A DNA stretch of 64,000 bases from Octopus sinensis (lineage: Eukaryota), in NCBI RefSeq assembly GCF_006345805.1, contig NC_042998.1, positions 156,178,001 to 156,242,000 on the forward strand. The letters run 5' to 3'. Shown piece by piece: positions 5,603 through 45,601 of this stretch (positions are counted from its first letter, which is position 1; the number at the start of each line of letters is the position of its first letter). The position numbers were made by a program, and so were the translations under genes. Below the pieces are notes generated by a model. That model saw only the letters and a program-made list of their open reading frames with translations. It was not told where the DNA came from and did not search any database.

Positions 5603-5650
5603 GCAGTTTATTTGTATTATTTTTACTTTTATTTTAATTTTATATATTGA

Positions 5651-7434: not shown

Positions 7435-7495
<61 letters not shown>

Positions 7496-7583: not shown

Positions 7584-7584
7584 A

Positions 7585-8310: not shown

Positions 8311-8329
8311 TGCTAGCATATATATGTGT

Positions 8330-8610
8330 AGATGTACATACTTATATATACATGCAAGAGCAGTTAATAATAATAATATTGTCAACACTAGTTTAAACCC
8401 CTACAATGAGAATAATATTAATGAAGATGTAAGAATTAGAAACAACAGTACTAACACATCTAATATGTACAATATAGACTGTAACTCCGAAGTTTATACT
8501 AGCACAGGGATTACTAATACAATGCCTGTTGATACTGAGGTGAATTTAAATGATACAACATTTGAAGGAAGTATAAATAATAACAGAAATAATAAAAATA
8601 ACGCAGATTA

Positions 8611-8662
<52 letters not shown>

Positions 8663-11841: not shown

Positions 11842-13131
11842 TCAAAAGTTGAGTAAAAAGTAAGCAACGTTTTGAACCATAAAGAATTTGTACCGGATTT
11901 TTGCAGAGTTTTTTTTTTTTTGGAGGGGGGGTTAAAACATTTTTTGCAATTGTCTGATAATACAGACATAGACTTGCCCAAATGCATCAATAAATTAACA
12001 TTGATATTTTTCCCTGTTGTTATAATCATCTTAAATGGTACTATCAAAACGCGATATTCGAGCAATTTTGCTATTTAACTTCAAAAAAGGACGTAAAGCA
12101 GCTAAAACTGCTTGCAATATCAATGTAACATTTGGTGAGGAAATGATCAGTGAGTGGTCAGCTCGAAAATGGTTTGAACGATTTCGCAGTGGAGACCTGA
12201 GCTTTGAAGATCGTGACCGTAGTGGACGCCCATCTGTCATCGATGACGGCCAATTAAAAACCATCATTGAGAAAGATCCACGCAAAACTACTCGAGAACT
12301 GGTAAAAAAGAACTTCAAGTTAGCCAGAAAACTCCCTGCAACCGTTTGCATGCGATTGGGTAATCAAAAAAGCTCGACAAATGGGTACCACACGATTCGA
12401 ATGAAAGTCAGTAAATAAAAAAAATATGAAATTTGCTCGTCGCTTTTCCGTAACCAGACCGATCCATTTCTCGATAACTTGCGATGAAAAGTAGATTCAG
12501 TACAATAAGGAAAAAAAAAACGTTCTTCGCAGTGGTTGGACCAAAATAAAGCACCGAAAACCTTCTCTAAACCCAACCTCTTCAAAAAGAAGGTTATGGC
12601 GACTGTTTGATAGTGTACTGTTGGACTCATCCAGTATGACTTCTTAAAACCCTGAAAAACCATTACTGCAGAAACATATTGCTATGAAATTGCCAAAATG
12701 ATCGAAAAACTGTTACTCTTCCGTCCCAGACTGGTCAACAGAATAGGGCCAACCATTCTTCATAACAATACCAAACCACACGTTTCACTAATGACGCTCC
12801 AGAAGTTGAGGGAACTCGGCTACGAAATTCTTCCCCACCCAGCTTATTCCCGGATCTTTTTCCTTCCAACTACTACTTTTTCAAGCACCTTGAAGGTTTT
12901 CTGCGAGAAAAGGAGTTCAAAAATCAAACCGATGCTGAAAGTGCATTCAAAGAGTTCATCAGCTCCAGAACTCCAGATTTTTATGTTACCGGAATAAACA
13001 GACTTGTAACTCATTGGTAAAAAGGTGTTGATTGTAATGGTACTTTCTTTGATGAATAAAATGTCGGCATTGTTGAAATATATTGATGAATTACATGTTT
13101 CAAAACGTTGCTTGCTTTTTACTCAGCCTGA
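11842..13131 (+). mobile_element. mariner (DD34D) transposon, full length, pseudogenised
   Basis: TIRs ..TGAGTAAAAAG(T/C)AAGCAACGTTTTGAA flanked by TA. HTH ARKWFERFRSGDLSFEDRDRSGRP, WVPH-like motif, ILHNNTKPH, ILPHPAYS; frameshifted. Confidence 0.93.
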
Positions 13132-14839: not shown

Positions 14840-17800
14840 ATGACCCTATGTAGACTATGTGGGTAGAGATAGGAATAGGAGGAGATGTAAATGCCTCTAA
14901 GACCTGCTCAGACGTTCCCAACTGTCTGACAGGTACCGACTGGACCGCCCGAATGTGCCAATGTGGACACAGAGCAAAAGTATCGAGTCGTCCAGGTCGT
15001 ATTTAGATAGAGGACAGCGGGTAGGGATAGTGTAGGTTGTCCACAATTCCATATAGTCAGCTACATAGATCACAAATTTGTGACTTGTACACGAACCATA
15101 GGCAGCGTCCCGGCTATTGGAAACTGAACGCGTCGCTCACGGCGCGCCAGGCTTACAGAGACCGGATTAGCACATTAGTTAAGAGGATATTGACGGGCGC
15201 CATCATCAACAATAGATGGTGGTATGCCCTAAAGAAAGCGATTAAAGCGGAATCGGTTAGGTATAGTAAGGCTCTAGCGATAGATCGAAATTGAATAGAG
15301 AAAGGCTTAGTTCAGAAATTTGAAGAGGCACATAAACATGGCATCGCGTCCAACGTGCTAGCGGCGAGGTTGGCCCACGACCAATACTTCAACGCCAAAC
15401 ACTAAGGATGCGTTCTCAGAGCTAGGATGCATACTCTGAGAAACAAAGGAATTGGAGTCGCCCTAGAGGCCCGAGTGGTGGAGGCGCAACGAGGCAACAA
15501 AGACACCATTAGGTCTCTGACAGATGGACAGGGGCGCGAATTACTCGAGCCCGAAAGGATGTGGGAGGCCTTTCAACAGCACTTTTCCCGACTGTTCGGG
15601 ACAAGTGGTTGGTCAGAACGCAGCGTGGACTTTAGTGCATATGTGCATGGCCTGCCACGACTCTCGGCAAGAGAGGCGGAGTGTTGTGAAAGACCCATCA
15701 CAGCCGCGGACGTACGGGATGCGATGGCAGGCTGCGCAGGAGACAAGTTGCCAGGCTTGGATGGTCTGCCCTACGAGCTTTATTGTCATATGCCTGACTT
15801 GTTTGGAGGTGTCTTGGCAGCAGTCTACTGCAACTGGCAGCAAAACGGGAGTATCCCCAGTTTTATGAGCCAAAACTGCTAAAGAAAGATCCAAACAAGG
15901 GGAACGGCATAGATAACTTCAGGCCCATCACTCTGCTCAACGCAGATTTGAAGATTTTAGCCAAGGTGCTAGCCAGGAGGTTGGCGCTTCTTATCAAGAA
16001 ACTGGTCGACAAGGCGCAAACATGCGCCATACCTAGCAGGTGTAGCCATGACAAACTCCATCTGATGCGTTACATCATTGACAAGATAGTTAAGGAACAT
16101 GGCATGGTTGGGGTGCTGAACAATTTGGATGAATCGAAAGCTTTTGGTAGGGTCGACCATCGCTACTTGGAGGCTGCCTTTAGAGCGGCTAGTTTCGGTC
16201 CCGTCTTCCGCGGTTGGATCACTGCCTTATACAGCGGCATCCGCTCGGTAGTTCGCGTAAATGGTCATCTATCCAGACCATTTAACATCATGCGTTCGGT
16301 CTGTCAAGGATGTTCCCTCTCGTCGCTTCTGTAGGTATTGACTCTAGAGCCACTACTGCCGAAGCTGGTGACACCGAGGGGCATCCCGCGAGAACTGGGA
16401 TGCGAGAGAAACGTGTCTGCCTACACGGACGACGTCACCGTCATAGTGTCGATCCACAGGCATATTGAACCGTTCGGCGAGACACTAAAAGAATACGAAG
16501 CGATAACGAGAGCGAAAATTAACTCGGAAAAGTCAGTGGGCTTGCGGCTCGGTACCTGGAGAGGCAGGCCCATGCCGTCCAACAGCGTCTCCATCGTGGG
16601 ACACTGGACCGACAGACCGGTTAATTTGCTCGGGTTCTGGTTCGGACCGGACCTCCAAATGGAGAACTGGGACGAGATAACGAGTAGGATGGCCACTCTT
16701 ACCTAGCAATGGGCCGAGAGAAAGCTATCCCTAAAAGGTCGGGCAGAGGTAGCGAACACGTACATCGTGTCCGTCATCTATAACCGCCTGACCGTCGTAT
16801 CTTGTCTCCACCCTAGCATCATCAAGCTGGAACGCATGCTATTTCGCTTTTTGTGGAAGGGAAGCATTATCATAGTTAGGCGATCCATTTGCTATCAACA
16901 CCCGCTAAATGGAGGGCTGGGCATGCCGTGGTTGATGATATGCAGACATGCCTTGAGACTGCGACATCTCCAGCACTTCATAGATGACAGGTTGCCGTTT
17001 GTGAGGCGCGCTTCCCGCAGCTCGTCTCTTTGGCCGAACTGCAGTCATAGATCAAACAGAGAATGACACCGCGAATGCCGCTTTGCTCTCAAGCAACTCT
17101 GCTGTCCGGGACCAGACTTGTGCAACTTCAATTCCATGAAGGCGTTCTATAGAGGATTAATGGAGGTAAGGTGCGACGACGTTCTTGGGAGTATCTGGGT
17201 ATCGACGGCGAACACCTGACTCGCCTCTTGAGGACAACTTTTTGGCCGGGACCTATGGACAATCATCAGAGATCCCTGGCCTGGCAGTGCTATCGGAAAG
17301 CATTGCCCGTTCGGGATAAGCTCTACAGGTACGGTTCCAGGTACATCGGACTGACTTGCCCGAGATGCGGTCAGAGCGACGAAACCGTTCTGCACGCATT
17401 CGCGCAGTGTCCAACCATTTCAGACCTGTGGGCTTATGTCGAACGGCTGCTGTCACGTATAGGATGAATTCGGTTATCGGCCGAGTCTATCGTGAATATT
17501 GCCCCGCCACCTTCCTTTAACCGGGAAGGCAAGGTAGTTTTCATTGTACTGGTGGCTATTGTGAAAGAATGTGTGTGGTGGGCTCGTGCGAAAGGTCTAG
17601 AGACAAACACTTTCCTCTCTGGCCAATCGCTCATCAACTTTTCAAGTGCCACTTGAAAAGGAAGGTGAGAATAGAGAGGGAAGTTTTGTCGCATAAAAGT
17701 TTCAATAAAAGGTGGGTGAATGTAGCAAAGATGGTACGCGTAAGTGACGAAACCACTTTAAGAATGATCCTATAAATCCGAGAGAGAGAGAGAGAGAGAG

Positions 17801-18350: not shown

Positions 18351-18442
18351 TGTATAAGGGTGAAAAGGAACACACGAGTTGATATATATGAAAAAACAAG
18401 TAAAAAATAGAAAATGCTAAAATAATTTTATAGTGAACATTT

Positions 18443-18480
18443 CAGTACCGGTTTCGGTCATTTTGAGACCTTTTCAACTG
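18443..18480 (-). ncRNA. Type I hammerhead ribozyme, U3-A8 variant (left arm)
   Basis: Exact mirror of 22473-22510. Confidence 0.75.
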
Positions 18481-19214
18481 TAACGATTAAATTAGAAAAA
18501 TTAGAAAAATTAGAAGAAAAGTTTTCTTAAAAGAATATTTCTATAGTAGTGTTCAGATTTAAGTGGCATTCTGCCTTTCTCTGACTCCCTTGTTTGCACT
18601 TGTGTGTTCGAGGTAGTTGTGAGTTCTTGGTAGGGTAGTAGAGGGAAGGCTGGTGAGGAAAGGGGGGTGGGAGAATCTGGGAGTGCCCTGATGGTCGTAT
18701 TTTGAATGGTCAGTGGCGGCTGGCAGTCTCAGTTCAATTCAGGAGAATATTTATATTGACAGGCTTGTTTATAGAATTAGCGTAGGTGTTATACTAAAAA
18801 ACATTAGTGACAAACTTAAGGGGTAGGGGGTGGAGAAGAAGAAGAAGAAGAAGAAGAAGAAGAAGAAGAAGAAGGAGAAAAAAAAAGAAGGAGAAGGAGA
18901 AGGAGAAGGAGAAGAAGATGATGGTGATGGTGGTGATGATTATGACGACGATGATGATGATAACGATGATGATGAAGAAGAAGAAGGAGGAGAAGGAGAA
19001 GATGGTGGTGATGATGGTGGCGATGATGATGACGCCGATGATGATGATAACGATGATGATGAAGAAGAAGAAGAAGAAGAAAAAAACAGAGAAGGGAGAA
19101 TATGAATGGGTGTAAATATAGCTATGAAGGGGCTGATTAGTAATGGATTCTATGGAGTGTAGTATTTGTGTGTGTATATATATTTTTTTCTCTTATTCTA
19201 AAGTTGAGGTATAT

Positions 19215-20598
19215 TAATTGTTTGTCGTAGACCCGTTAAGAAGTGGCTTGTATTTTGTAATAAAGAGATTATCTTTACTTATTCTTTGTCTCGAGGTTGT
19301 ATCGTCCCTAAATTGGTAGAGGGGGAAAATTCTGAAGTTTGGTGTTTTTTTTGTTGGCGCAAGTATCTATGTGTTGGCTAAAAGCTATTTTTCTGTTTTG
19401 GGGAATTTTTATCTGGGATCTGTGCAGGGCCATTCGTTTACGCCAAACCATTTTTTGTTTGGCCTATGTACTGCTCTTGACACCCGGAGCAGGTTAGTGA
19501 GTATATTAGGTTATCCGAAGCACATGTGAAGTTGCTTTTCACTGTAAACCGTTGTCCCTGTTTGAAGGAGAACTCAGAACCCTCGATTAGATAGTCGCAT
19601 ATCCCGCAATTGGGTCTTCCACATTTTTTTACTGTCGGCTTCTGTGTTGAAGAGTGAATTCGGGCTTGTGTAGGAGACTTTTCATGGATCTAGGCTGTCT
19701 TTTGCTTTTTATGATCGTGTGTGTTTGGAGGATTGTGTTCATTCTGTGGTCTTTTTTTAGGAGGGGTATGTTGTGGAGGATGGTGTCGAAGGCTTCGTTA
19801 TTGAGAGGGTTGTGTGTGGAGATGTATGGTAAGGCTTTTGGTTGTAAGTTTTTCTTTGATTTGGGATGTCTCAGTTCCTTGATGTTAAGTTGAAGGGCAC
19901 GTTGAATGCACTTGTCAATAAGTGAAGGTGGATAGTTCCTGGTGATTAGGGTATCTTTTAGTTCTTGTAGTCGTGTGTCTCTGGTGTTTGCGTTAGAGAC
20001 TATAGTGCATATCCTTTTTGCTAGATTGAAGGGGATATCATCCTGGTGTGTCTGGGGTGGCATGAATTGAATGGAAGATATTGCTTAGAGTCTGTAGGCT
20101 TATAGTATATGTCTGTTTCTATTATATTATTAGCTTTCTTAATGAGGATATCGAGGAAGGGGAGTTGTTGTTGGCTATATCCATCGTGAATTGGATGTTT
20201 ACGTCCAGTCCGTTTAAAATTTTCTGGAATTCTATGAGTTTTTCTATATTTTTATGCCAAAGGATGAAACAGTCATCTAGATATCTCTTCCAGTTGTTTT
20301 CTATGTAGATGGAGAAAGGGCTGCCATATCTTTCTAGAACCTTACGATACAGACTGATCTCTAGGTATCCTATGACTAGGTTGGCAAAGGAGGGGGCCAT
20401 TCGTGTACCCATCGCAGTCCCCGATTTTTGTCGGTAGAAGTTGTCATTGAAGGCGAAGAAGTTATTTTCCAGGATGAATTTAACCCCTTCTATCACAAAT
20501 TCTTTTTTGATGCGGTGTGGTAGTTCGTTGGCGTGATTCTCTAGCCAGAATTGGATTGCCTCTAGTCCTAGGTTGTGGGGGATATTGGAGTAGAGGTT
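19215..20598 (-). pseudogene. PLE RT + GIY-YIG, 5'-truncated (left arm)
   Basis: NLYSNIPH, YRQKSGTAMGTRMAPSFANL, WKRYLDDCFILW and DIPFNLAKRI; frameshifts. Confidence 0.92.
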
Positions 20599-21225
20599 AA
20601 ATTCATCCTGGAAAATAACTTCTTCGCCTTCAATGACAAAGATATGGCAGCCCTTTCTCCATCTACATAGAAAACAACTGGAAGAGATATCTAGATGACT
20701 GTTTCATCCTTTGGCATAAAAATATAGAAAAACTCATAGAATTCCAGAAAATTTTAAACGGACTGGACGTAAACATCCAATTCACGATGGAATATAGCCA
20801 ACAACAACTCCCCTTCCTCGATATCCTCATTAAGAAAGCTAAAATATAATAGAAACAGACATATACTATAAGCCTACAGACTCTAAGCAATATCCATTCA
20901 ATTCATGCCACCCCAGACACACCAGGATGAATATCCCCTTCAATCTAGCAAAAAGGATATGCACTATAGTCTCTAACGCAAAACACAGAGGACACACGAC
21001 TACAAGAACTAAAAGATACCCTAATCACCAGGAACTATCCACCTTCATTATTGACAAGTGCATTAACGTGCCCTTCAACTTAACATCAAGGAACTGAGAC
21101 ATCCCAAATCAAAGAAAAACTTACAACCAAAAGCCTTACCATACATCTCCACACACAACCCTCTCAATAACGAAGCCTTCGACACCATCCTCCACAACAT
21201 ACCCCTCCTAAAAAAAGACCACAGA

Positions 21226-21753
21226 ATGAACACAATCCTCCAAACACACACGATCATAAAAAGCAAAAGACAGCCTAGATCCATGAAAAGTCTCCTTACA
21301 CAAGCCCGAATTCACTCTTCAACACAGAAGCCGACAGTAAAAAAATGTGGAAGACCCAATTGCGGGATATGCGACTATCTAATCGAGGGTTCTGAGTTCT
21401 CCTTCAAACAGGGACAACGGTTTACAGTGAAAAGCAACTTCACATGTGCTTCGGAGAACCTAATATACTCACTAAACTGCTCCGGGTGTCAAGAGCAGTA
21501 CATAGGCCAAACAAAAAATGGTTTGCGTAAACGAATGGCCCTGCACAGATCCCAGATAAAAATTCCCCAAAACAGAAAAATAGCTTTTAGCCAACACATA
21601 GATACTTGCGCCAACAAAAAAACACCAAACTTCAGAATTTTCCCCCTCTACCAATTTAGGGACGATACAACCTCGAGACAAAGAATAAGTAAAGAAAATC
21701 TCTTTATTACAAAATACAAGCCACTTCTTAACGGGTCTACGACAAACAATTAA
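21226..21753 (+). pseudogene. PLE Cys-rich linker + GIY-YIG endonuclease (right arm, open frame)
   Basis: KCGRPNCGIC...FTCASENLIYSLNCSGCQEQYIGQT...LRKRMALH...KENLFI...LN. Confidence 0.92.
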
Positions 21754-22472
21754 TATACCTCAACTTTAGAATAAAAGAAAAAAATATATATACACACACA
21801 AATACTACACTCCATAGAATCCATTACTAATCAGCCCCTTCATAGCTATATTTACACCCATTCATATTCTCCCTTCTCTGTTTTTTTCTTCTTCTTCTTC
21901 TTCATCATCATCGTTATCATCATCATCGGCGTCATCATCATCGCCACCATCATCACCACCATCTTCTCCTTCTCCTCCTTCTTCTTCTTCATCATCATCG
22001 TTATCATCATCATCGTCGTCATAATCATCACCACCATCACCATCATCTTCTCCTTCTCCTTCTCCTTCTTCTTCTTCTTCTTCTTCTTCTTCTTCTTCTT
22101 CTTCTTCTTCTTCTTCTTCTCCACCCCCTACCCCTTAAGTTTGTCACTAATGTTTTTTAGTATAACACCTACGCTAATTCTATAAACAAGCCTGTCAATA
22201 TAAATATTCTCCTGAATTGAACTGAGACTGCCAGCCGCCACTGACCATTCAAAATACGACCATCAGGGCACTCCCAGATTCTCCCACCCCCCTTTCCTCA
22301 CCAGCCTTCCCTCTACTACCCTACCAAGAACTCACAACTACCTCGAACACACAAGTGCAAACAAGGGAGTCAGAGAAAGGCAGAATGCCACTTAAATCTG
22401 AACACTACTATAGAAATATTCTTTAAGAAAACTTTTCTTCTAATTTTTCTAAATTTAATTATTTAATCGTTA

Positions 22473-22510
22473 CAGTTGAAAAGGTCTCAAAATGACCGAA
22501 ACCGGTACTG
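22473..22510 (+). ncRNA. Type I hammerhead ribozyme, U3-A8 variant (right arm)
   Basis: CAG-TTGAAAA-GGTC TCAAAAT GACC-GAAA-CCGG-TA-CTG, in sense orientation downstream of the PLE ORF. Confidence 0.78.
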
Positions 22511-22622
22511 AAATGTTCACTATAAAATTATTTTAGCATTTTCTATTTTTTACTTGTTTCATATATATAATATATATATATATATATATTATAATATATA
22601 TATACACAGACGCACACATATA

Positions 22623-22654
<32 letters not shown>

Positions 22655-24233
22655 CAGTGGCGGCCAAAATGTTCAGAACGGCATTGTTTTCGTCAGAACA
22701 GTGGATATAATTTTTTATCAAAGTTGTTTTATATTCTATAATTTTCACAGACAATAAATACGATATTATTTGTTATTGCCTGAGATTTTAGTGTAATTTG
22801 AGAGAATAATACAAAAGTTATGGATGATTTAGGGATTTACTGCAAAACCCATGGCGGCCAAAATGATCAGAACGGTTGCTTTTACTCCGTGTTCTAGTAT
22901 ATTTAACCGGCGAACTCTAATGTTTTGAATTTGTTTACGTGACGGTTCGTTTACTAAACATTAGTAAGAATATTTGCAGTGTACTTTGTTAATATAATGC
23001 CACTTACTCCGTTACCAATTCGTCAGCAGATTATTAAGCTTCGAAGGAAGGATAATATAAGTATTGGATCTATTGCAAAGATTGTTAACAAGTCAAAAAG
23101 TGTTGTACACTTAAGGTCTACGATGATTGTGGTTCGTGTGAAGCAAGAAAGTTTACAGGTAGGCCAAGAAAAACGACCAAGAGAGAAGATCGTGCTATGG
23201 TAAAGTTGGTTAAAAAGGACAGATTTAAAACTGCTGCTGCTGTTTCTTGGAAAATGAGCATTGTATTGAAGAAAACTTTATATCGAAAAACTGTGTCTCG
23301 TCGTTTAGTTGAACATGACTTACAAGCAAGAACACCTGCAGTGAAGCCACTGATCAGCTCCAAGAATAAAAGGTGTCGTCTTACCTTTGCAACCAAACAT
23401 GTGTTGTGGTCTCAAGAAAAATGGCAAACGGTGCATTTCCACTGAAATGAATCTAAGTTTCGTAGAATAGTAGGTGAAAAATTGTCGCCAAAATGCCTTA
23501 AGACTAGTGTTAAATTCGGTGGAGGAAGTGTCATGGTTTGGGGGATGATATCTGGAGATGGTGTGGGCTCTTTGGTGCGATTACAGGAAAGGTAAATGCA
23601 GGAGTTTATAAACAACTTATAAAAGATCATGTCTTGCCTGTGCTGAGAAATTCAACTAAGCGACCACCCATATTCATGCAGGACAATGCCCCATGTCACA
23701 AGGCTAAGGTGGTCATGAACTTCCTCAAGGCTGAAAAGGTTATTGTTATGGATTGGCCTGCTCAAAGCCCAGATCTCAATCCTATTGAAAATGTATGGAA
23801 TATTCTAGGAGAACGTTCGAAAGCCAGAAATTCTAAAACAACTGAGCAATTATGGAATGCCCTTCAGGAAGAATGGAATAAGATCACCCAGCAAGAAATT
23901 GAAAATTTAATTTCCTCATGCAGTCAAAGATGTCAGAGTGTGATTGAAGCTAAGGGCTTCACACTAAATATTAAATAATTCCAGTATTCTCTGTCATTTT
24001 TTTATATTTTGTTATTTTTCAACCGTTCTGACATTTTGGCCCGCTATGGGTTTTGCAGTAAATCACTAAATCATCCATAACATTTGTATTATCCTCTCAA
24101 ATTACACCAAAATCTCAGACAATAACAATTAATATTGTATTTATTGTCTGTGAATATAAAACTACTTTGATAAAAACTTATACTTACTTTTCTGACGAAA
24201 ACAATGCCGTTCTGAACATTTTGGCCGCAACTG
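22655..24233 (+). mobile_element. Tc1-like (DD34E) transposon with ~220 bp IR/DR ends, pseudogenised
   Basis: TA-CAGTGGCGGCCAAAATGTTCAGAACGG...CCGTTCTGAACATTTTGGCCGCAACTG-TA. Inner direct repeats at about 22851 and 24020. FMQDNAPCH and WPAQSPDLNPIENVW. Confidence 0.95.
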
Positions 24234-26765: not shown

Positions 26766-27399
26766 ATATAGTTCATACACAACTAGACTCAACAACAATA
26801 TCTTTAGCATGTTTTTATCTTTCATAAGGATTATTATGTATATCCAAATATGTTATGTGACATTCACTCCATTTACTCTTCTGTAACAATATAATATTTT
26901 TCTGATGTATTCTTTTTTTGCACTGAGGAGAACAGTAATATGTAATTAATTTAATTATATTATATTATATTAATTTCTAATTTTTTTTTATCATGGTATT
27001 TTCATGTTAATATTACCATTCGATTAATTATCGTATGCATGGATTAAATTCTTTTAAAACTTTTGACACCTTTTCTTCTCCATCTTTAATTGTTTGTTGA
27101 GTTTCAATAGGATATGTGTTCTATAAATGCTCGTAAACACAACTTATACTTGTAGCATTTTCATATTCGAAAAATTCTTACAACAGTAAGCTACCTTTGC
27201 AATATGAAGAATCTTTATTAGAAATCGTCATTTGGAAACCTCCCAAAGAACTCAAACTTTTCTCAATATATATGTGTGTGTGTGTGTGTGGTGTGTGTGT
27301 GTGTTGTATGTAAGTATATGTATATATATATTATATATATATATATAGATATATATTATATTATATATATATATATATATATTTATGTATATGTGTGTG

Positions 27400-27435
<36 letters not shown>

Positions 27436-27438
27436 GTC

Positions 27439-27648
27439 CATTATTTACATTTGGCGGATATTTGTCCTCATCTTGTTTGTTGTTAACACAACGTTTCGGC
27501 TGATGTACCCTCCAGCCTTCATCAGGTGTCTTGGGAAATTTTGAACCTAGGTTCTCATTCCTAAGGTATTTTCGATGTAGCAGTTGTTGTTATTATTATT
27601 GTATAATTATATTATTATTATTATTTTATTATATTATTATTATTATTA

Positions 27649-27695
<47 letters not shown>

Positions 27696-27715
27696 ATTAT
27701 CATCATCATCATTAA

Positions 27716-27779
<64 letters not shown>

Positions 27780-27859
27780 TATTATTATTATTCAGGTCAC
27801 TGCCTAGAATCGAACTCAGATCTTGGGGTTAGTAGCCCGCGCTCTTAACCACAACGCCA
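27439..27859 (-). mobile_element. tRNA-head + (AAT)n + hammerhead module, solo copy 2
   Basis: Same head (27859-27792), longer microsatellite and same HHR as 7281-7583; no PLE ORF adjacent. Confidence 0.82.
27485..27530 (-). ncRNA. Type I hammerhead ribozyme, canonical core
   Basis: ACAC-CTGATGA-A-GGCTG GAGGGTACAT CAGCC-GAAA-CG-TT-GTGT; differs from copy 1 only in loop II. Confidence 0.85.
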
Positions 27860-27933
27860 TATTTGTCAATAGAGGGTATATTATCCGAAGTATACTGTAC
27901 ATACATATATTATCCGATGTGTACAGTATACTT

Positions 27934-28008
<75 letters not shown>

Positions 28009-29962: not shown

Positions 29963-30084
29963 TGTATGTATGTATGTATGTATGTATTCACTTTTTCCGT
30001 TCATGCACTATTTTTGTATCAGTTTAGATAGTTTTTATACAGTATAAATAGCTGTAGACTTTAATCTCTCAGATGAGTATTCTT

Positions 30085-30123
30085 TCTCTGATGAGGTCCA
30101 AACAAGATTAGAAACTTGTCAGT
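30085..30123 (+). ncRNA. Possible decayed hammerhead
   Basis: CT-CTGATGA-GGTC CAAACAA GATT-A-GAAA-CTTG-TC-AG; the stems are weak. Confidence 0.4.
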
Positions 30124-30279
30124 TCGCTTCCAGTTTTCTACCCATTCAGGGATTCAAAATTCATGTACTGAAACCATTTTATTTCCTTTGCACAGTTAAA
30201 ATATGAAGGCACTTGTTTTATGACTGTATGCATTACATTTAAAGTTGTGTGTGTGTGAGGAGAGAGAGAGTTGTAGGGA

Positions 30280-30379
30280 NNNNNNNNNNNNNNNNNNNNN
30301 NNNNNNNNNNNNNNNNNNNNNNNNNNNNNNNNNNNNNNNNNNNNNNNNNNNNNNNNNNNNNNNNNNNNNNNNNNNNNNN
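30280..30379. other. Assembly gap (100 N)
   Basis: Run of N. Confidence 1.
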
Positions 30380-30776
30380 ATGTGAAGCTGTCATATGTGA
30401 AACAAAATGGTTGTTGTAAAATATGTTTTCACTGTCTTCACATTCATTCTTCCACTGGTTTTATAAGTATCTTTAAATCATGTCAACGAAGTGATGTTCA
30501 ATTATTCCAGCCAAGTATGTTTTAATAGATTTTGCTGATCTGTTGATAAAGTAAGTTTTTTTTGTCACAACAAAAACTATTAACACTTAATCATAAAAAG
30601 AATCTGTAACAGAGAGAATAACTGAAACATTGTTTGAAGCGTGGTTAATAACAGGAAAATACTGAAGTGGAACAGTCAGTTACTAAATTGAATGTTAGGA
30701 TTCCACTTCAATTTAAAAAATTAAGCACAATAACCTTTTTCTTTATTTTCTGTCTTCCGAGTGTTTCTTAATATAT

Positions 30777-30927
30777 AGGCGCAGACGTTACTGCGTGATA
30801 AGAAGCATGCTTCCCAATGACATGGATCCGGGTTCAGTACCACTACGTGGCACCTTGGGGGAGTATCTTTTGCTATAGACTCGGGCCGACCAAAACCTTG
30901 TGAGTGGATTTAACAAGCCTGTCGTGT

Positions 30928-30961
<34 letters not shown>

Positions 30962-31230
30962 ATGTATGTATGTATGTATGTATGTATGTATGTATGTATG
31001 TATGTATGTATGTATGTATGTATGTATGCATATGTATATATGTGTGTGTGTGTCTTTGTCCCCACCACCGCTTAACTACTGGTGTTGGTGTGAAATTTAG
31101 TGGTGAGGTAAAAGATCTATAAAATGAGTACCAGGCTTTAAAAAAATGTACTGGGGTCGATTCATTTGACTAAAATTTCTACAAGGCGGTGCCCCAATAT
31201 GGCTGCAGTTTAACGACTGAAACAAATAAA
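30777..31230 (+). mobile_element. Family A CORE-type SINE with internal (TA)n/(TATG)n
   Basis: GGCGCAG...GGGTTCAGTACCACTACGTGGCACCTTGGG head; GGCGGTGCCCCAATATGGCTGCAG...CTGAAACAA tail. Confidence 0.85.
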
Positions 31231-31268
31231 ATATATCATCTTCTTAATTTTTTTTCTGCGCGTTTTAT

Positions 31269-31722
31269 GGCGGCGAGTTGTCAGAATCATTACTGCGCCG
31301 AGCAAAATGCTTAGCGGCATTTTGTCCGTCTTTACGTTCTGCGTTCAAATTCCGCCGAAGTCGACTTTGACTTTTATCCTTTCGGAGTCCATAAAATAAG
31401 TATCAGTTGAACATTGTAATCGACTTACTCCCCTCCTCGAAAATTCTGGTCACGTACCAAAATTTGAAACTATTATTTTGTCACTTTTCATTTTTAATAT
31501 GTCTTTAGCTGTAAGGCGGTGAGGTGACAGAATCGTTACCGCGCCGAGGAAAATGCTTAGTAGCATTTCGTCCGTCTTCACAGTTTAAGTTCGAATTCCA
31601 CAGAGGCCAACTTTGCCTTTTATCCTTTTGAGGTCGATAAAATCAGTACCTGTTGAGTACTGGGGTCGATTTAATCGGCTTACCCACCAAAACTGTTGGC
31701 TTTGTACCTAAATTTGAAACCA
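31269..31722 (+). mobile_element. Two tandem family B SINEs (31269-31470, 31515-31722)
   Basis: GGCGGCGAG...CAGAATC.TTAC.GCGCCGAG..AAATGCTTAG...GTTC.AATTCC in both. Confidence 0.85.
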
Positions 31723-32280
31723 ATATCTTTTCAAATTTTTCCCTTTCTCTTTCTCCCGAAGCTCAATTTCGTGCCTTACGCTGTCTTCTTTCTCACTCTC
31801 ATTCTTTGTATTACTAGCCTCTTCTGAATATTTCGTTTATCCTTGAAACTCATATTTCTTTCTTTTAACTCGAATTTCCTCCATTCTTCTATTTCAACTG
31901 CCAATATGTTTGTGTATCACTTATGAAATAAGAAAATAAGTCTGCCTTTTACAGCTTATAGAGTAAAATAGCTAGATGTGAAACTTACTCTACCAGTGTA
32001 ACTAGATCCAGAGAAGAACATTATCTTGGTTTCAGCAGCAAAGTCTAAACTTGTCGATTCTACTGACATCTTCATATAGTTTACATACAACGTACATATA
32101 GTTGCATAGAAGTGTTTATAGGCTAAGCAAGGATCCTCAGATCAGGAGATTTACGTTATCGTATTACTCAACTTTAACAAGTCGAAATTTGTTACATTTC
32201 TTCATATACATACATACATACATACATACATACATACATACATACCTACATACATACATACATACATACATACACATACA

Positions 32281-32314
<34 letters not shown>

Positions 32315-32402
32315 CATAATACATACATAGATACATGCATACAAACATGCATACATACATATGTCTGGATGTTTTGCGTTCTTGTCCCATTTTTTGTATT
32401 CT

Positions 32403-32436
<34 letters not shown>

Positions 32437-32475
32437 TTCCTTTGTCCTCCCGTCTCGGGACTTTCTTTCTCCTAT

Positions 32476-32510
32476 GTTTCCGACGAAGAGCTCCGCTCGA
32501 AACGTCAAAC
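32476..32510 (+). ncRNA. Type I hammerhead ribozyme (U4C variant) in a ~170 bp unit between (TA)n tracts
   Basis: GTTT-CCGACGA-A-GAGC TCC GCTC-GAAA-CG-TC-AAAC. Confidence 0.78.
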
Positions 32511-32622
32511 CCTCCTTCTTCCCTTCTTTCCTGAGCGTCCAATAATACTTTATTTGTTCCACATCCTTGCGTTGTTGTGTTTTTGTTTTCTTGTTTGGAT
32601 TAACTTTATATATATATATATA

Positions 32623-33883
32623 CGAGGGGCGTTCAATAAGTAATGCCTCTGACCCACTTGCAGTTGTTTGATCTAGCTGAAATTTTGCATGTGCAATTAC
32701 CTATATCTCTATAGATTAAGTGGCAAATTACAGCTCTGAACTAATTGTGGTTTCTGATTTACATGTGTTTGAACTGAGTCAAGTGTGAAACGGAGCCTGT
32801 TGAGTGTCGAGCAGTGATCCGGTTTTTGTATTTGAAAGGACGCACACCACGGAGACTTTTGATGAAATAAAAGTAACTTATGGTGATGATGCCCCATCAT
32901 ATGACCTTGTAAAACGCTGGCATCGTGAATTCAAACATGGTCGGAACTTTGTGGAAACAGCTCCCAGATCTGGTCGCCCCCTTCTGCCATTGATGAGGCA
33001 TCTGTCCGTCAAGTTGAGGCTGCCATTTTGGAAGATCGACGCATAACTATTCGCCAAATAGCCCATGAGGTCAAGATTAGTACCGGGTCTGTGGAACTAT
33101 CATTCATGACCATTTGCATATGCAAAAGGTGTCTGCCAGATGGATTCCCAGGCTGCTCACACCTTTCCAGAAGCAAGAACGCGTCGATAGCGCGAGGATG
33201 AATTTGAATGTGCCAAGAAGATGAGTCAAAATTTTTCAAAGACTGATTACACAGGATGAAACCTGGGTCCATCACTATGATCCAGAGACCAAAGCCCAGT
33301 CAATGCAGTGGAAGCACCGTGACTCACCTCCTCCAAAGAAGGCAAGGGTGCAGCCCTCCGCTGGCAAGGTCATGCTCACAGTCTTCTGGGACCAGGACGG
33401 AGTAGTGATGACAGATTTCTTGGAAAAGGGTGCCACAATTACAGGAGTCTATTATGCTTCACTTTTGAGGAAATTAAGAGAAGCTATCAAAATCAAGATC
33501 AGCAAAGGCATCCTCCTCCTGCAGGACAACGCTCCGATCCACAACTCGCGTGTCGCCAGATCAGAAGCACAGGCGTGCGGCTATGAACTCATCCCCCATC
33601 TCCTGACCTGCACCCTCTGATTTTCACCTCTTCCTAGCCATGAAGTTGTTTTTGAAAGGAAAGCGTTTCCCGATGATGCAGCCTTGATTTCTGAAGTCAC
33701 GTCGTGGTTGGGGACCAAGCTGGGGTCTTCTACAAAAACGGTCTTCAGAGCTGCATCAAACGATGGAGAAATGCGTAACTCTGGGTGGTTCCTATGTAGA
33801 AAAAGACTAATAACTGTGCCAAGTTTCGTTGCTCTACTGCTATGGGAAGTGGGTCAGGGGCATTACTTATTGAACGTCCCTCG
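32623..33883 (+). mobile_element. mariner transposon (irritans-like), full length, pseudogenised
   Basis: TIRs CGAGGGGCGTTCAATAAGTAATGCC.CTGACCCACTT. WIPRLL, TQDETWVHHYDPETK, SAGKVMLTVFWD and LLQDNAPIH. Confidence 0.95.
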
Positions 33884-33909
33884 TGTATATATATACAGAG
33901 AGAGAGAGA

Positions 33910-33959
<50 letters not shown>

Positions 33960-34104
33960 ATATGAGGGGTTTAGTTCACTTGTGATTTAAACGAATAGGT
34001 ACGCTGGTTAAGGGCTTTAGTTTCTCAACCGTTAGGTTCCAAGATCACAGCTAAGGCTGGATCTAAGGATCCGCGTTAGGGTTCCGTTATAGCATGTATA
34101 TATA

Positions 34105-34443
34105 TAGACAGGGAAGATTTACAATTTACAAGGAATAAAATTTACTGTTCATAAAGAATAAAATAGAAAAATGAAGGAATAAAATAGAAGAATAAAGTAG
34201 TTAGAAGAATATAAGTGGGAAAATAATGTTCATAGCTCATCTTTTTCCAGAGGACGTTGGTTGGTACTTCTATGGAGATACAAGTTTTTAGTTATTCTCC
34301 TACCTATATTATTCTAACTACTTTTACTCCTTTATTCTTCTATTTTACTCCTTTATTCTTCTATTTTACTCCTTTATTCTTCTAAATCATTCCTTATAAA
34401 CCGTGAATTTTATTCCTTGTAAACTGTAACTCTTCCTCGTCTA
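34105..34443. mobile_element. Fold-back MITE with ~120 bp imperfect TIRs and subterminal tandem repeats
   Basis: TAGACAGGGAAGATTTAC..TTTACAAGGAATAAAATT versus the reverse complement at 34405-34443; TTTACTCCTTTATTCTTCTA repeated three times. Confidence 0.7.
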
Positions 34444-35013
34444 AAATATCCATACCTTATCTCTAACCAGCCACTTGGGTTATCCCAGAAACGGCTGTAT
34501 GACTTCAAATTCACCTTACCTTAACTAAATTATTCTAAGTGGCTTGAGATACTGGTTCTGCCTTGGTTTTGGTTTTTCCTCTAATATAATATAATATAAT
34601 ATAATATAATATAATATAATATAATATAATATAATATAATATAATAAATGCGAAAACTAATTTCTGTATGCCAGTGTGTCACGCTTAGACTTCCTCTCTG
34701 ACAATTCAATGACACTCCTACTATTCCTCATGATGAAGTGAGAGTAATAGTTGGCATAGAGACGGTGAGGGCAGTGGCGAGGACAGGCAGAGAGAGAGAG
34801 AAACAAAGAAATTTAAGGAGAGTTGATGATGTTTTATTAAAAGAAGTCGTGTTGACTGTGGCAATGGGAGTAATAATAAAAGAGAGACAAAGAGTGGGTA
34901 TGTTAGAGAAAGAGGAAATGTGATGTACATTGTTTAACCATATCTCTTTGACAGAAATTCCTGTCGCGAACACACTGAACACTATCATTTTTGTTTTATT
35001 TTTTCGCTTTCTT

Positions 35014-35088
<75 letters not shown>

Positions 35089-35090
<2 letters not shown>

Positions 35091-35727
35091 GGGTGTTCAA
35101 AAAGTCTCTCCGCAGTGAATTTTTTTCATCCTGCGCATACGCAAATTGGCTATTACTGCATGGGCGCCGGATGTCAGCCATCGTCCCTCAGTCATTGTGT
35201 AGCCTTCAGCGTGTCGACATGCTAACCATTGAAGAACGTACGTTTTTAGTTGAATGGGTGTTTCCAGCTGGAAACATACACAGAGACTGTGAAACAGAAG
35301 TTCAGTGAAATTTTTCCAAATACTGTTGTTCAACATCAGGACACTGTGTGGGATTTGGTAAGAAAATTAAGGAATACAGACTCAGTGGAAGATGCAGCAT
35401 GAAGCAGTAGGCCTACTGTTCTTTCAGACGAAACACTCTCCAATATTTCTGATAAACTGTTTGCAAGCCCGTCAAAGTGTCACAGGAAACAGAAATCAGC
35501 ATAGGAAGTGTTCATACGGCAGTAAAAAAGAAATTAAATTTCTTTCCATACAAAGTGCTGGCCATTCAAGAACTGAAGACTACGGATTATGCCAAAAGGT
35601 TTCATTATTGTCATTGGTTCCAAAACTTTGTTGCCGGAAAAGGCATAGAAATGTTGGATGGGTGTTTTTACATCGGTGAGGCTAGGTTTCATCTGTCGGG
35701 ATACATAAATTCGCAAAACACAAAACA
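35089..35727 (+). mobile_element. 5' fragment of a rosa/DUF4817-type Tc1-mariner transposon
   Basis: CAGGGTGTTCAAAAAG start; MLTIEERTFLVE, KKLNFFPYKV..IQEL...DYAKR, EARFHLSGYINSQNT; truncated. Confidence 0.78.
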
Positions 35728-36595
35728 TCTAATATAATAAATGTGTATGTCAGTGTGTCACACTTTTTTAACTTTAAAAAATCCTTTCTGCTGGAAGCAC
35801 AAAGCCTCGAATTTTGGGGAAATGGATTAAGTCGATTACATTGACTCCAGTACGTAACTGGTACTAATTTTATAGACCCCGAAAAGATGAAAGGCAAAGT
35901 CGACCTCAGCGGAACTCAAACTCAAAACCTAACTGCAGACAAAATACCGCTAAGCATTTCGCCCGGCGTGCTAACGATTCTGCCAGTTCGCCGCCTTAAT
36001 GTAATATAATATAATATAATATAATATAATATAATAAATGTGAATGTCAGTGTGTCACACTTTTTCAACTTTAATCCCAGAGGCTGTAGCCCAACATATC
36101 ATAGCGTTTTGGAATCAGGCTGACTCTGTGAGTAAATTAAAAACATTCCGGGCCGGATCCAGACCCACAATCCTGAAATTTTGGATTCCCAAGTTTTCAT
36201 TACTGTGATTGTTTTCGGCGATTTTTTTACGTGACATTTTGGGACAAATTTTCTTGTACAATAACAATTTTTATAATCTAAAGGCTAACTTCCTGAGTAA
36301 ATCAAATACATTCCATGCTAAATCCGGACCTGCAATCCTGTAATTTTGGATTCCTATGTTTTCATTGCTGCGATTGTTTTTGGCGATTTTCTTTTACGTG
36401 ATTCTTTTGTGACGAATATGATCATCATTGGGATATGACTCTGGAGGAATCAATCTTTCTATTCAGGATCAGTTGTACAGATCTACCACAACAGATCATT
36501 TGGTATAAGACTGCATACTTATCAACAGAAAATCATGCACAACTATGTTGTCAGAAAACTCTAGAACGATAGTAACACGGATAGCTAAACTAATC
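35728..36595 (+). mobile_element. Probable non-autonomous Helitron-like repeat interrupted by a family B SINE
   Basis: A|TCTAATATAATAAATG...GTCAGTGTGTCAC start, repeated near 36020 and 34580. The 3' end is uncertain. Confidence 0.45.
35780..35997 (-). mobile_element. Family B SINE, near full length
   Basis: Reverse complement GGCGGCGAACTGGCAGAATCGTTAGCACGCCGGGCGAAATGCTTAGCGG... Confidence 0.88.
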
Positions 36596-36811
36596 TAATC
36601 TTGGACCGACATTATGTACAATACATTAGACATCAGTTTGAAGTGCTTGCCTTTTTTGTTATCTGCGAACCGAACGTTCCAAGAAAATAGTTAATGCACA
36701 AAAATAACTTCTTTGTTCGACACCAGCCACTTCCTTATAGGAAAATTTCAAATAATTAAAATTGAAACATACATGCATATATACAGACGTACGTTTATAC
36801 ATACATACATA

Positions 36812-36875
<64 letters not shown>

Positions 36876-37034
36876 TACATACATACATACATACATACAT
36901 ACATACACACTTATATATATATATATATAAAATAAACATAATAAATAAGGTAATAAATTATTATTACCAGTGGTTTTTGAGATTTCTACTGGTCTTTCTA
37001 GCACAAAGCTTTCCTATTTGGAAGCCTCTTATTG

Positions 37035-37107
<73 letters not shown>

Positions 37108-37987
37108 GATAAATGTTCACGCAAAAGTCGTAGCAGAGCCATCTCGTAAGCTCGATAAAGAATACTCTGAAAAGGTAAAAAGTGTGAAAAAAAAAGCGTG
37201 TTGATGGTCCGAATATTGCGAGGTAAAACCTTTGTGATTGTAAAGAACAAGTTCCAATGACAACTAATATTACAACATGCTTCCCTGGCTCCACAAAATG
37301 CCAACATCAGAGGGTGTAGACTTCTGTGGCTCGATCACGCACACACACGTAACACTGAATAGGGTCTATCAATGGAGAGAAGTTGATCAAGCTAGTTGCA
37401 CCTACAGCGGTGTCGTCTCCTTGAATACACTGGGCACTTTTTCGCGACCCGGTAATGGATATAACCGTTGTTTGTTAAAGAGCTGCAAATCGACATCTTT
37501 ATTAACAAGCAACACCTCTACAAAGATGCAACCTAAAATATCAGCCAATCATACTTGACCATACATGAAACCTAAAACAAATTAGATAAATAAGATTATT
37601 GAGTACTAGAAATTATATTATTTTGAGTTACTAGATTTTCAGATTAAATATCATATCGTTTCGACCTATCAAACTCTTAATTCAGATTGGCCTTCTAGAC
37701 AAGCTGATGTACACAAGTCAGCCGATCATTGTCACTGGAGCTTACATCAAACCCGTTCTCCATTTCACGTTTTTCTATCTCCTCGCTCACTGCTGTTTGG
37801 TGGCTGTTGATCACATGCTGAGTTCATCTGTTTTTTTTTTTGGCGGGGAGGGGTCATCTTTCACAGGTTCGCTGGATTTCTAATAATCTTCCTTATCGGG
37901 CTAACCTGATGAGGATAGTAGTTTAGCCGCTGACGATCTTATCATTTAACATACATTCATCCTGATTCTTTTAACATAACATACATT

Positions 37988-38368
37988 GGCGCGAGCGTGG
38001 CTGTGTGGTAAGATGCTTGCTTCCCAACCACATGATTTCCGGGTTCAGTTCCACTGCATGGCTCCTTTGGCAAGTGTCTTCTACTATAGGCTCGGCCCGA
38101 CCAAAGCTTTGTGAATGGATTTGGTAGGCGCGGAAACTGAAAGAAGCCCATCGTATTTATATGTGTGTCTGTCTGTCTGTCTGTTTGTCTTTCTGTCTAT
38201 GTTTGTCTCGCACCGGTGCCCTTGTAACCAGCGGTTCAGCAAAAGAGGCCGATAGAACAAGTACCAGGCTTTAAAAAAAAGTCCTGGGATCGAATCATTC
38301 GGCTAAAAAATTCTCCAAGCTGGTGTCCCAACATGGCCACAGTCTAATAACTGAAACAAGTAAAAACA
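37988..38368 (+). mobile_element. Family A CORE-type SINE abutting a CR1-like LINE
   Basis: GGCGCGAGCGTGGCTGTGTGGTAAG head, CTTTGGCAAGTGTCTT core-like motif, CTGAAACAAGTAAAA tail. Confidence 0.88.
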
Positions 38369-38369
38369 A

Positions 38370-39657
38370 TACTAAGCTCTTAGAACACTATGACTGGGTG
38401 TTGAAACAGCTGCTCAACCGCTCAAGTGTGGATGTGATATATCTCGACTTTGTAAAGGCTTTCAATAAAGTCGATCATGAAATGATATGTCACAAACTGC
38501 GTGATCTCGGCATAGTCGGGAAATGGGGAGAATGGCTGCATGACTTTCTGAAGGATAGAAATCAAGCAGTAGTAGCCAATGGGGCCACCTCTAATGACAC
38601 ACAAACAGTGAGTGGTATTCCGCAAGGCACTGTTTTGAGACCTCTACTATTCATAATGGCCCTCTCAGATATTCCCTCAGCCACACAAGTTATGCAGATG
38701 ATACAAAAGTCTAACAGGTGATACAGAAACCTGAAGACGCAATGCACCTGCAACGTAAGTTAGATTAAATATACAAGTGGGCTGAGAAGAATAGCATGCA
38801 GTTTAATACTGAAAGTCTCAAGCCCTATGCTATCAGCATGCAATACTAAATGCAGTACCAATTAAATACACCGGACCTGGAGGGATTGCAATCCCTGAGA
38901 CACAGTCAGTACAAGACCTGGGCATTTACATGTGTAATGATACATCCTTCCATGTGCATGTTGCTAAGTTGGCAATGAAATGGAGGCGGCTGATCGGATG
39001 GATTCTTAGAACTTTTAAAACGAGCGATCAGGAAACCATGATGGTCCTCTGGAGGACATTTATCGTAAGCTGCTTTGACTATTGCTCCCAGCTATGGTTA
39101 TCAACCAGTGTAAAATTAATTGCAGAACCTGAGATAATCCAACGAAGCTACACGATGAAGATAGCCTCTATGCAGCATAAAAGCTACTGGGAACGACTCA
39201 AGAGATTGAGACTTCATTCTCTGGAGCGCAGGCGGGAAAGATATACCGTAATATACATCTCGAAGATACTGGAGGGACTTGTCCCAAACCCTGGCATCGA
39301 GAGTTACACTGCATTGTACCAAAGACTCCAACTTTATAGAACAAGATATTGTAACAGCCTGGGCTTTAAAGGCCCACAGCTCTTCAATATCCTTCCGAAG
39401 GGCCAGAGGACCCTACATGGGGTGGATGTAGATGTCTTCAAACCGCAACTAGATCTCTTACTGTCAAGAGTCCCAGATGAGTCAACTTCATAGCAAGAAG
39501 TGCAAATGAGGGCATCGGCGCCAGACTCCCTCATGCACCAAATGTCAAGTTCCAAAAAGGATTAGTGAAGTAAAAATTATGTAGCAACACCAAATGTCGG
39601 TGCCCCAGCATGGCCACAGCTTGTGACCTGAAACTAGTTCAATTCAATTCAATTCAA
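38370..39657 (+). mobile_element. 5'-truncated CR1-group LINE (RT and 3' end)
   Basis: VDVIYLDFVKAFNKVDH, SGIPQGTVLRPLLF, DYCSQLW and LHSLERRRERY. Ends GGTGCCCCAGCATGGCCACAGC...CTGAAAC plus (TTCAA)4. Confidence 0.9.
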
Positions 39658-40909
39658 TATATAGCGTCAACCAAGTCAGCTGCATTGCATTAGAAGCTTT
39701 CCTTTTCATAAGTTGGTCAAAAGAGAAAAGACAGCGTACATAATTTTTGTAGATGCTTCCACACTGGTGAGTTTGAAAAAATACTTCCTCATGAATCTTG
39801 AGGAAATATTCATCCGGTGATACAGCTTCTATCATTATACATGCATAGGGTAGCCACTTATGACTCGGCATTAACGAACAAGTAGTAGAAAACAACTGAA
39901 TAATCCAATTCACAGAAAGACTGGAGGAAGATGTTATTTGATATAACAACCCATTGAAGTAAAGGCTACTTACAACACCAGATGTTTGGTATCGTACAAT
40001 ACTGTTGCTATTTGTGAAATGCCATATTACAAATAATACCTAGCACAAAGGGACATACTTTGAATAATGAATGTATTGCAATTTAGTATTCGACAACAAA
40101 TGGAACTGTGTTCTCCAAAATGGATAGGATTGCTTAATCATCAGGAATTACTTCTCTTTAGGAACATGGATACAAGAGAAGCTAAAGAGCAAATTAAAAA
40201 ATCTCCAATTATGGATGGCTGAAGTTTGAAATGTAATGGCAACCAGACACAAATCGCAAGAGTTCATTATAATCCAAGCGACTCTCCCTCTTCCCGATTC
40301 ACTGTTGCAAACATTTCAAAAACAACAGCAATTCCAGCACTGGAAAAGAACAAGCAGCAGCGGCGACAAAAGGAAAATAGAATTTAAAACAAAAACAAAA
40401 ATTACACACAAACAGTATCAAGTACTTCTGCGAAATGCTGCTACAGATGAACCCATGAAGAAGTACCCCTACAAAATATAAGTAACATTCAAGCAGATTC
40501 TGGTATAGAAACAAACACAAGTACATACGGATAGAACTTAAACTCTCTGTTCCCGCAAATGAGGAAGATTACGAGGGCAACAAAGAAGATTTCGATATAT
40601 GGTAGAGAGTAAAGAAACAGATGGCTGGACCTCCAATATCCAAAAGTTTGTAAGCGCCTGGACCAACAAATACCATAAAAGTGCGGTGAAGAATACGAGT
40701 CTAGTAACAAGATAAAACATAACTACCACAACAGCAACCGCTGCATGTGCCACAACAACACGTCGACACAACAGTAGAAGCAGCAATAGTACAAGTAACT
40801 TTAAAATGAGCTACGGTAAAAGTAACGACAAAAGGAGACAATGATAGCAACAAGACTGAAACTATGACCACATCAATGACCAAAGTAACACCACACAACA
40901 GAACTCCTC

Positions 40910-45269: not shown

Positions 45270-45601
45270 ATAATAATCATAATTTCTTAAGTAACCAGAA
45301 GGTGGATTTGGTATTAATCTTTATTTTGTACAACAGTCGTTTCGACCCATCCTGCTACTGTCCCTTACGGGTGGGACTCAGTTCAACATGTTGTATTTAA
45401 TCCATTTTGCAGTCTAGGTCACATCAGGTACATCCATACATAAAGTTGTGTCTCTCTAAAGATCCTTACGGGTAGTCATGTTGTTATATGTCATGGGCAT
45501 ATCACCCGTAAGGGACAGTAGCAGGATGGGTCGAAACGACTGTTGTACAAAATAAAGATTAATACCAAATGCACCTTCTGGTTACTTAAGAAATTATTAT
45601 C

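Follow-up and report, generated by a model that had tools for sequence, protein, structure and literature searches.

A tRNA-headed, hammerhead-bearing pseudo-LTR of a Penelope-like element and its solo copies in the genome of Octopus sinensis

We analysed a 64,000-nt window of the Octopus sinensis genome (NC_042998.1, positions 156,178,001 to 156,242,000, including 100 N), in which a short module occurs twice, once on its own and once beside the remnant of a Penelope-like element (PLE). The features of the two copies are as follows.

27439-27862, minus strand: solo pseudo-LTR module, made up of a tRNA-like head, an (AAT)n spacer and a minimal hammerhead
27793-27862, minus strand: tRNA-derived head of the solo, beginning some 10 nt inside the usual family 5' end (from its sequence, family comparison and in-register alignment to genomic tRNA-Arg(TCT))
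27849-27859 and 27806-27815, minus strand: A box and B box of the solo head, with one change each against the family majority
27577-27792, minus strand: (AAT)n spacer of the solo, 216 nt
27439-27576, minus strand: 3' part of the solo pseudo-LTR, 138 nt, a decayed PLE ORF start
27485-27530, minus strand: minimal type I hammerhead in the solo, 46 nt, core intact (from sequence, fold and published definition)
27315-27435, no strand: (TA)n run in the 3' flank of the solo (repeat annotation)
7282-7583, minus strand: the other copy, which forms the 3' pseudo-LTR of a 5'-truncated PLE and lacks about 14 nt where the head begins
7584-8316, minus strand: 5'-truncated PLE ORF remnant with a short 3' UTR, comprising the RT C-terminus, linker and GIY-YIG-type end

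An earlier note on this DNA had reported that the module recurs without an ORF, and we confirmed both copies and found no ORF upstream of the solo. The two are 92% alike overall, with 91.5% for the alignment of the 3' parts (27436-27589 against 7282-7434) and 81% for that of the heads (27793-27859 against 7512-7583). As also reported, the spacer has changed greatly in length, from 216 nt in the solo to 90 nt in the ORF-linked copy (family range 9-447, the longest spacers containing insertions), and the two 46-nt hammerheads differ at a single position, which lies in loop II. The same boundaries had been claimed for both copies; this description is correct, but the shared 5' boundary at 27859/7583 is partly an accident, because the ORF-linked copy lost its first nucleotides and the solo starts inside the usual family start. 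Segmental duplication of the two copies was rejected since their flanks are unrelated: over about 1 kb per side they have in common only a 76-nt (TA)n(TG)n run, which is off the junctions and non-collinear. No target duplication was detectable at the solo copy.

The 3' end of the solo is the nearer one of the family's two 3' ends. Its ORF start codon lies at 27556-27558 and is followed by a decayed frame with an early stop and a 1-nt loss. The hammerhead corresponds to the minimal type as defined in the accessible text of two sources (PMC4209133, PMC6765202); stem III is palindromic with two base pairs, and cleavage is predicted between 27490 and 27489. Rfam returned neither a tRNA nor a hammerhead match at either window copy, the minimal hammerhead of the solo falling below its reach, and ARAGORN found no tRNA anywhere in the window. 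Relative to the family majority, each promoter box of the solo has one changed base, namely position 14 in the A box and the final base in the B box, which likely makes this copy a poor promoter. Elsewhere in the window, Rfam gave a weak Hammerhead_1 match at 45326-45433 on the minus strand (22.4 bits, E 0.75), and its miRNA-type matches were dismissed as low-complexity noise.

Three further observations concern the surroundings of the copies. Just 5' of the solo and beside (TA)n, an inverted repeat of about 60 bp at 27885-27945 is 84% self-complementary and is possibly a MITE remnant. At the solo 5' junction, 9 bases (27859-27867) repeat the module's own 3' part in the same orientation, which may be due to chance or to a jump between templates. 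An Asn/Ser-rich open frame (8183-8899, plus strand) adjoins the truncated PLE on its 5' side in the opposite orientation; it ends with a YIG-like motif and is perhaps a piece of another GIY-YIG element.

It is near certain that the module is the pseudo-LTR of a PLE and not a separate element. With the remnant at 7584-8316 as the query, we obtained 150 scored relatives in the genome, and in 18 of the 20 best loci the head lies directly 3' of the ORF at a fixed distance; in the remaining two, the hammerhead part is retained. One nearly full-length copy (L142) has its hammerhead part running in frame into the ORF, and this ORF-start stretch has a counterpart in the N-terminus of an intact relative of 847 aa (E 2e-20). 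The hammerhead part thus encodes the ORF N-terminus, and the order of the element is ORF, head, (AAT)n, hammerhead/ORF start. Annotations of RVT_1 and, in some, GIY-YIG are carried by 1,697 relatives; Pfam scans of two decayed copies (the 7584-8316 remnant and a 551-aa copy) gave no match, and the named relatives, at 38-43%, are uncharacterised beetle and coral proteins. We liken the element to the Penelope/Poseidon group on its architecture, which resembles that of the Anolis element PAc, and on its short linker, which we take to be a Penelope/Poseidon trait.

The insertions carry the marks of pseudo-LTR insertion, in which a tail of 30-40 bp is optional, namely two alternative 3' ends, tandems, inverted partners and target duplications. 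In a sample of the first 70 copies anchored at the 3' side, the 3' ends cluster at about +25-31 and +55-62, some 30 nt apart, and both sites are PLE sites inside the ORF start; neither a 3' end shared with a LINE nor an A-rich or simple-repeat priming tail was found. Among the 58 insertions that could be delimited, target duplications of 8-14 bp flank 20 of the 28 inverted insertions, 5 of the 22 single ones and 2 of the 8 ORF-truncated ones, against shuffle expectations (at least 8 bp) of 1.1, 0.1 and 0, respectively. These 58 were single, ORF-truncated or head-to-head, with no head-to-tail hammerhead arrays and only occasional partial tandems. The hammerhead cut site gave no clear peak of 5' ends, although 7 of the 22 ends in the hammerhead part lie within 7 nt of it where about 3 were expected, a weak excess. 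In 19 inverted pairs, the arms share 24 non-CpG variants against 8.5 under random pairing, which suggests a common template and does not separate the models considered below. A further two repeats were met several times either immediately 5' of the (AAT)n spacer or within it (one set of loci being L006, L012, L026, L101 and L283, the other L017, L024 and L266); they appear either to insert into the spacer or to have AAT tails to which truncated cDNA joins.

The family is large. In the 2.72-Gb genome, exact 20-mer matches numbered 11,549 near the 3' end and 4,938 in the head, dropping to 896 just above the head and 575 about 40 nt farther up, and reversed 20-mer controls gave 0 matches. Taken with a decay of about 5-6% per site, these counts would correspond to some 30,000-40,000 arms in the genome. 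Two sets of copies (L138/L139/L179/L180 and L292/L295/L296/L306) are near-identical with shared flanks and are segmental duplicates or assembly repeats. A comparison of substitution rates had been proposed for the hammerhead, whose window copies differ only in loop II. Over 169 modules (CpG and N7 excluded from the core positions), mismatch was alike in the core (about 4%) and in loop II (about 5%), and no selection on the hammerhead was seen in genomic copies; the single loop II change is no sign of it.

The reading of the head as a tRNA held as to origin: it is tRNA-derived, but too degenerate for ARAGORN or Rfam, which gave no tRNA match even on a well-preserved head. It aligns in register with genomic tRNA-Arg(TCT), the best of 27 tRNA sequences that sampled only six amino-acid types, with a score of 62 against a shuffle maximum of 50, and nhmmer against a profile of genomic tRNAs recovered it at E 7e-4. 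Both A and B boxes are present in the family head at the correct spacing.

To map 5' ends we took the first 90 head-anchored matches on contig 1, of which 87 remained after removal of 3 duplicates. Forty ends fell at -2..+8, 19 at +9..+20, 4 at +21..+27 and 11 at -3..-199, and 13 copies extended past -200. Per base at risk, the end rate was 7.6% at -2..+8, 2.1% at +9..+20, 0.33% at +21..+27 and 0.30% at -3..-199, so the peak (40 ends against 1.6 expected) stands 25-fold above background. The plot of ends asked for by the earlier note thus gave a sharp 5' peak at the head and not an even spread into the ORF. One of the 40 peak ends belongs to an ORF-linked copy with a deletion; the junction partners were inverted head (11), inverted hammerhead part (12), ORF (1) or none detected (16). 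The 70 3'-anchored copies stopped in the hammerhead part (22), spacer (16), head (7) or at the head start (18), and 7 entered the ORF, so 18 of the 25 that reached the head start stopped there. Most copies are plain truncations and about a quarter are complete solos.

Relative to the tRNA, the peak falls about 6 nt ahead of +1; it sits at a pyrimidine-purine step, some 13 nt upstream of the A box. Pol III starts at such a distance and at such a step on tRNA-type promoters. A Pol III start at the head seems slightly more probable than its absence. The fixed end belongs to the whole element, because copies with the ORF start also begin at the head: among the best 40 copies holding the ORF start, four of them near-identical duplicates, 7 reach a head, and 4 of these begin there (at 0, 0, +4 and about +9), two of which run on to the 3' pseudo-LTR. 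The other 3 continue through the head into an upstream copy, as tandem templates. RNA of the whole element likely starts at the head.

The earlier note had suggested that the module is transcribed and retroposed by itself. The head-start peak supports the part about where copies begin, but independence from the PLE does not stand, as the module is the PLE's pseudo-LTR and full-length copies start there too. In a comparison of 90 solo with 45 ORF-linked modules, we found no diagnostic substitutions of a solo lineage, and both haplotypes occurred in both classes; a few of 266 sites had nominal p < 0.02, with the minor allele commoner in ORF-linked copies. Once 5 misclassed copies had been reassigned, and 4 doubtful ones and all spacers above 250 nt excluded, the solos had the longer spacers, with a median of 45 (n=65) as against 28 (n=31) in the ORF-linked class (p=1.5e-4; uncorrected, 52.5 against 27). 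The spacers of head-started ORF copies measured 63, 21, 72 and 59 and those of tandem ones 33, 38 and 33; since head-started full-length copies have long spacers too, length tracks head-starting and not solo status. This points to two template pools, head-started and read-through, in which solos could act as sources, and the longer solo spacers make some re-mobilisation of solos possible. An AC/GT flip of the head hairpin loop, considered as proof of second-generation copies, was dropped because hairpin opening of the cDNA gives both forms. The solos have SINE-like traits, with a tRNA head, a short non-coding body and thousands of copies starting at the head, and 'SINE-like by-product of a tRNA-headed PLE' fits them better than 'SINE family'.

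We also considered whether Pol III might read the ORF. The 2,571-nt majority sequence has no sense-strand run of T4 or longer, and no G4 run either. For T4, base shuffling predicts 4.6 runs (P 0.007), a null of order 1 predicts 2.6 (P 0.08) and one of order 2 predicts 1.6 (P 0.21). The 65,445 aligned nt of individual copies hold 30 such T runs, none common to more than 3 copies. A second PLE family in the same genome, equal in T content, has 5 such runs in 1,960 nt (p 0.015), and a set of 36 related families, for which 60 of 79 loci were used, has 239 where 172 were expected. Of 30 relatives with a T4 expectation of at least 3, one has none in its ORF, and its pseudo-LTR is T-rich without boxes; this related PLE family was seen at L384, L362 and L381. 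Single copies of the present family have about 0.26 of the T4 expectation, with one relative lower and two close (0.28, 0.31). The lack of a shared T4 terminator in an element of about 2.6-2.7 kb hints at Pol III read-through of the ORF. Contigs of four presumed-RNA runs covered the element in two and a short part of it in one, and are of a kind from which start, strand and polymerase cannot be read.

The second PLE family is much younger and forms a large head-to-head inverted insertion in the window (18394-22559). Its relatives are 95-99% identical, some with 784-aa open frames, among 19,925 first-look candidates. In another organism, a distant PLE (38% protein identity; L334:2816-2910) has, ahead of its hammerhead, an AAT-rich stretch together with motifs that resemble an A box and a B box. 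It was rejected as a second tRNA-headed PLE and kept as a weak lead, its score of 47 lying within the range of shuffles (to 49); it gave no nhmmer or Rfam tRNA match and there are two T4 runs per unit.

The explanation that we find somewhat more probable than all others taken together is that the module is the pseudo-LTR of a Penelope/Poseidon-like retrotransposon with an acquired tRNA-derived head, and that the solos are short reverse transcripts, initiated at two internal priming sites and terminated by run-off at the RNA 5' end, which lies at the head, likely a Pol III start shared with full-length copies. Pol III would make the element RNA from the head, and the PLE protein would bind the ORF-start region and prime internally, as it does in vitro for the Anolis element; reverse transcription running off the RNA 5' end would then leave a solo. 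With reverse transcription starting internally, a full-length RNA primed at its 5' copy of the site would yield exactly a solo. The templates would be full-length elements, through their 5' pseudo-LTR in cis, and earlier solos in trans. Several points count against this explanation: it leaves the translation of an uncapped Pol III RNA unexplained, the T4 deficit weakens under stricter nulls, G4 runs are missing as well, one relative without boxes also lacks T4 in its ORF, and 3 of the 7 ORF-start copies derive from tandem templates that pass through the head. Nor does a fixed 5' end need Pol III, as 5' pseudo-LTR palindromes and solo pseudo-LTRs are known in PLEs with TATA/Inr-like motifs, according to the accessible text of one study (PMC3846280).

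Such palindromes, described there at pseudo-LTR 5' ends in Adineta PLEs (PMC3846280), lend some weight to an account that we consider possible but clearly short of even, in which the head-start palindrome itself sets the 5' peak through stalling or self-priming of cDNA on a longer Pol II or read-through RNA, with the tRNA-like stretch a passenger and the solos ordinary truncated insertions. The head start lies in a hairpin. Over 540 nt of one intact copy, no other site is predicted to snap back better (-4.6 kcal/mol at -8), though in another copy this site ranks only in the middle. Eleven of the 40 peak ends abut an inverted head, several with short palindromic additions, although 28 of the 40 have no head fold-back, and fold-back would also be expected of cDNA that had run off an RNA end at the head. 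Deletions recur at the head hairpin, and the raised rate at +9..+20 fits stalling at the 3' arm of the stem, yet the interval with the strongest predicted snap-back, -9..-3, holds only 1 of the 87 ends, and no comparable peak is seen at other hairpins that are similarly strong. Solos and ORF-linked copies having variants in common agrees with this account; the long solo spacers, the intact and well-spaced A and B boxes and the lack of T4 runs are left unexplained by it. The earlier note's own idea, a true SINE family with dispersed, Pol III-transcribed solo source genes copied in trans by the PLE enzyme and forming their own lineage, we regard as improbable. It draws on the 5' peak with its 18 stops among 25 copies, on the longer solo spacers and on clean solos inside target duplications (5 of 22 single copies), and pseudo-LTR sequences suffice for trans mobilisation in Adineta by the accessible account (PMC3846280). 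Against it stand the lack of any substitution marking solos, the presence of both haplotypes in both classes and the long spacers of head-started full-length copies. Random 5' truncation of a PLE, or segmental duplication of the two window copies, is very improbable given the 25-fold peak at the head and the unrelated flanks, even though 45 of the 70 copies are shorter truncations that end in the hammerhead part, spacer or head.

Run-off at a tRNA-derived head, our preferred explanation, could be extended to an autonomous, protein-coding retrotransposon under a captured tRNA promoter, whose whole length including the ORF would be read by Pol III and whose sense strand would be kept free of T4. 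Every solo end repeat would then be a potential SINE, and a SINE family would arise inside its own partner element. We hold this extended version only tentatively and think it unlikely.

Several structures described in the accessible text on known PLEs recur here. In PAc of Anolis the ORF starts in the hammerhead, and reverse transcription begins at two internal sites (tail) (PMC11167929). Like PAc and Adineta Pen2/Pen3 (PMC11167929, PMC3846280), the octopus family has its ORF start in a hammerhead-bearing pseudo-LTR, a pair of 3' ends separated by about 30 nt, and a palindrome at the pseudo-LTR 5' end, and it forms partial tandems, insertions with inverted 5' partners, target duplications of 8-14 bp and solo pseudo-LTRs; its structures also match what is available of a further report (PMC8557442). 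Unlike these elements, for which the accessible text describes TATA/Inr-like motifs and no tRNA head (PMC3846280), it carries a tRNA-derived head with A and B boxes exactly at the pseudo-LTR 5' boundary, and its whole sense strand is without shared T4 runs. As far as the source text goes, the nearest precedent for promoter plus hammerhead is the Sm-alpha type of Schistosoma: Sm-alpha and Sj-alpha are short non-coding repeats in which a hammerhead follows a Pol III-type promoter; they occur in tandem and are freed by ribozyme cleavage, with no named partner in that text (PMC6765202). The octopus unit differs in being part of an autonomous PLE, mostly single or head-to-head, with ends off the cut site. 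Metazoan non-LTR retrozymes are likewise non-coding, derived from PLE pseudo-LTRs and equipped with a type I hammerhead, but are defined as head-to-tail tandem arrays, and the accessible text mentions no tRNA head (bioRxiv 10.64898/2026.07.22.740005). Available parts of further papers entered the comparison (PMC10886601, PMC4758252, PMC5753468, PMC3520738).

In the literature searched, outside which lie Repbase, Dfam and most subscription papers, we found no description of a tRNA-headed pseudo-LTR or a PLE-mobilised tRNA SINE, and the family may already be catalogued. Ohshima and Okada are said to have described tRNA-derived SINEs of octopus in 1994, and the octopus 'Twin' repeat reportedly has a tRNA-derived head. 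These heads are alike by description only, and the family may be catalogued under such a name, or in Repbase with no connection drawn to a PLE; OR2 is mentioned, in the text accessible to us, as a CORE SINE.

The family bears on the start point of PLE RNA and on the cause of the solo and inverted end repeats that PLEs leave. It offers base-level mapping of both ends over thousands of copies, and its promoter type is directly testable. If the Pol III start is true, SINE-type parasitism would extend from LINEs to PLEs, with a route to SINE birth from a pseudo-LTR; if Pol III also reads the ORF, this would be a protein-coding retroelement under a Pol III promoter.

The remainder of the window holds other mobile-element traces. 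Inverted-repeat pairs typical of DNA transposons or MITEs occur at 592-1829, 4162-5650, 22741-24157 and 53615-53829, and transposase-like frames at 12035-12997, 23089-23978 and 33225-33620. Decayed frames of RT, LTR-retrotransposon and PLE type were recognised by eye at 15406-17467, 38275-39493, 47660-50739 and 53269-53745.
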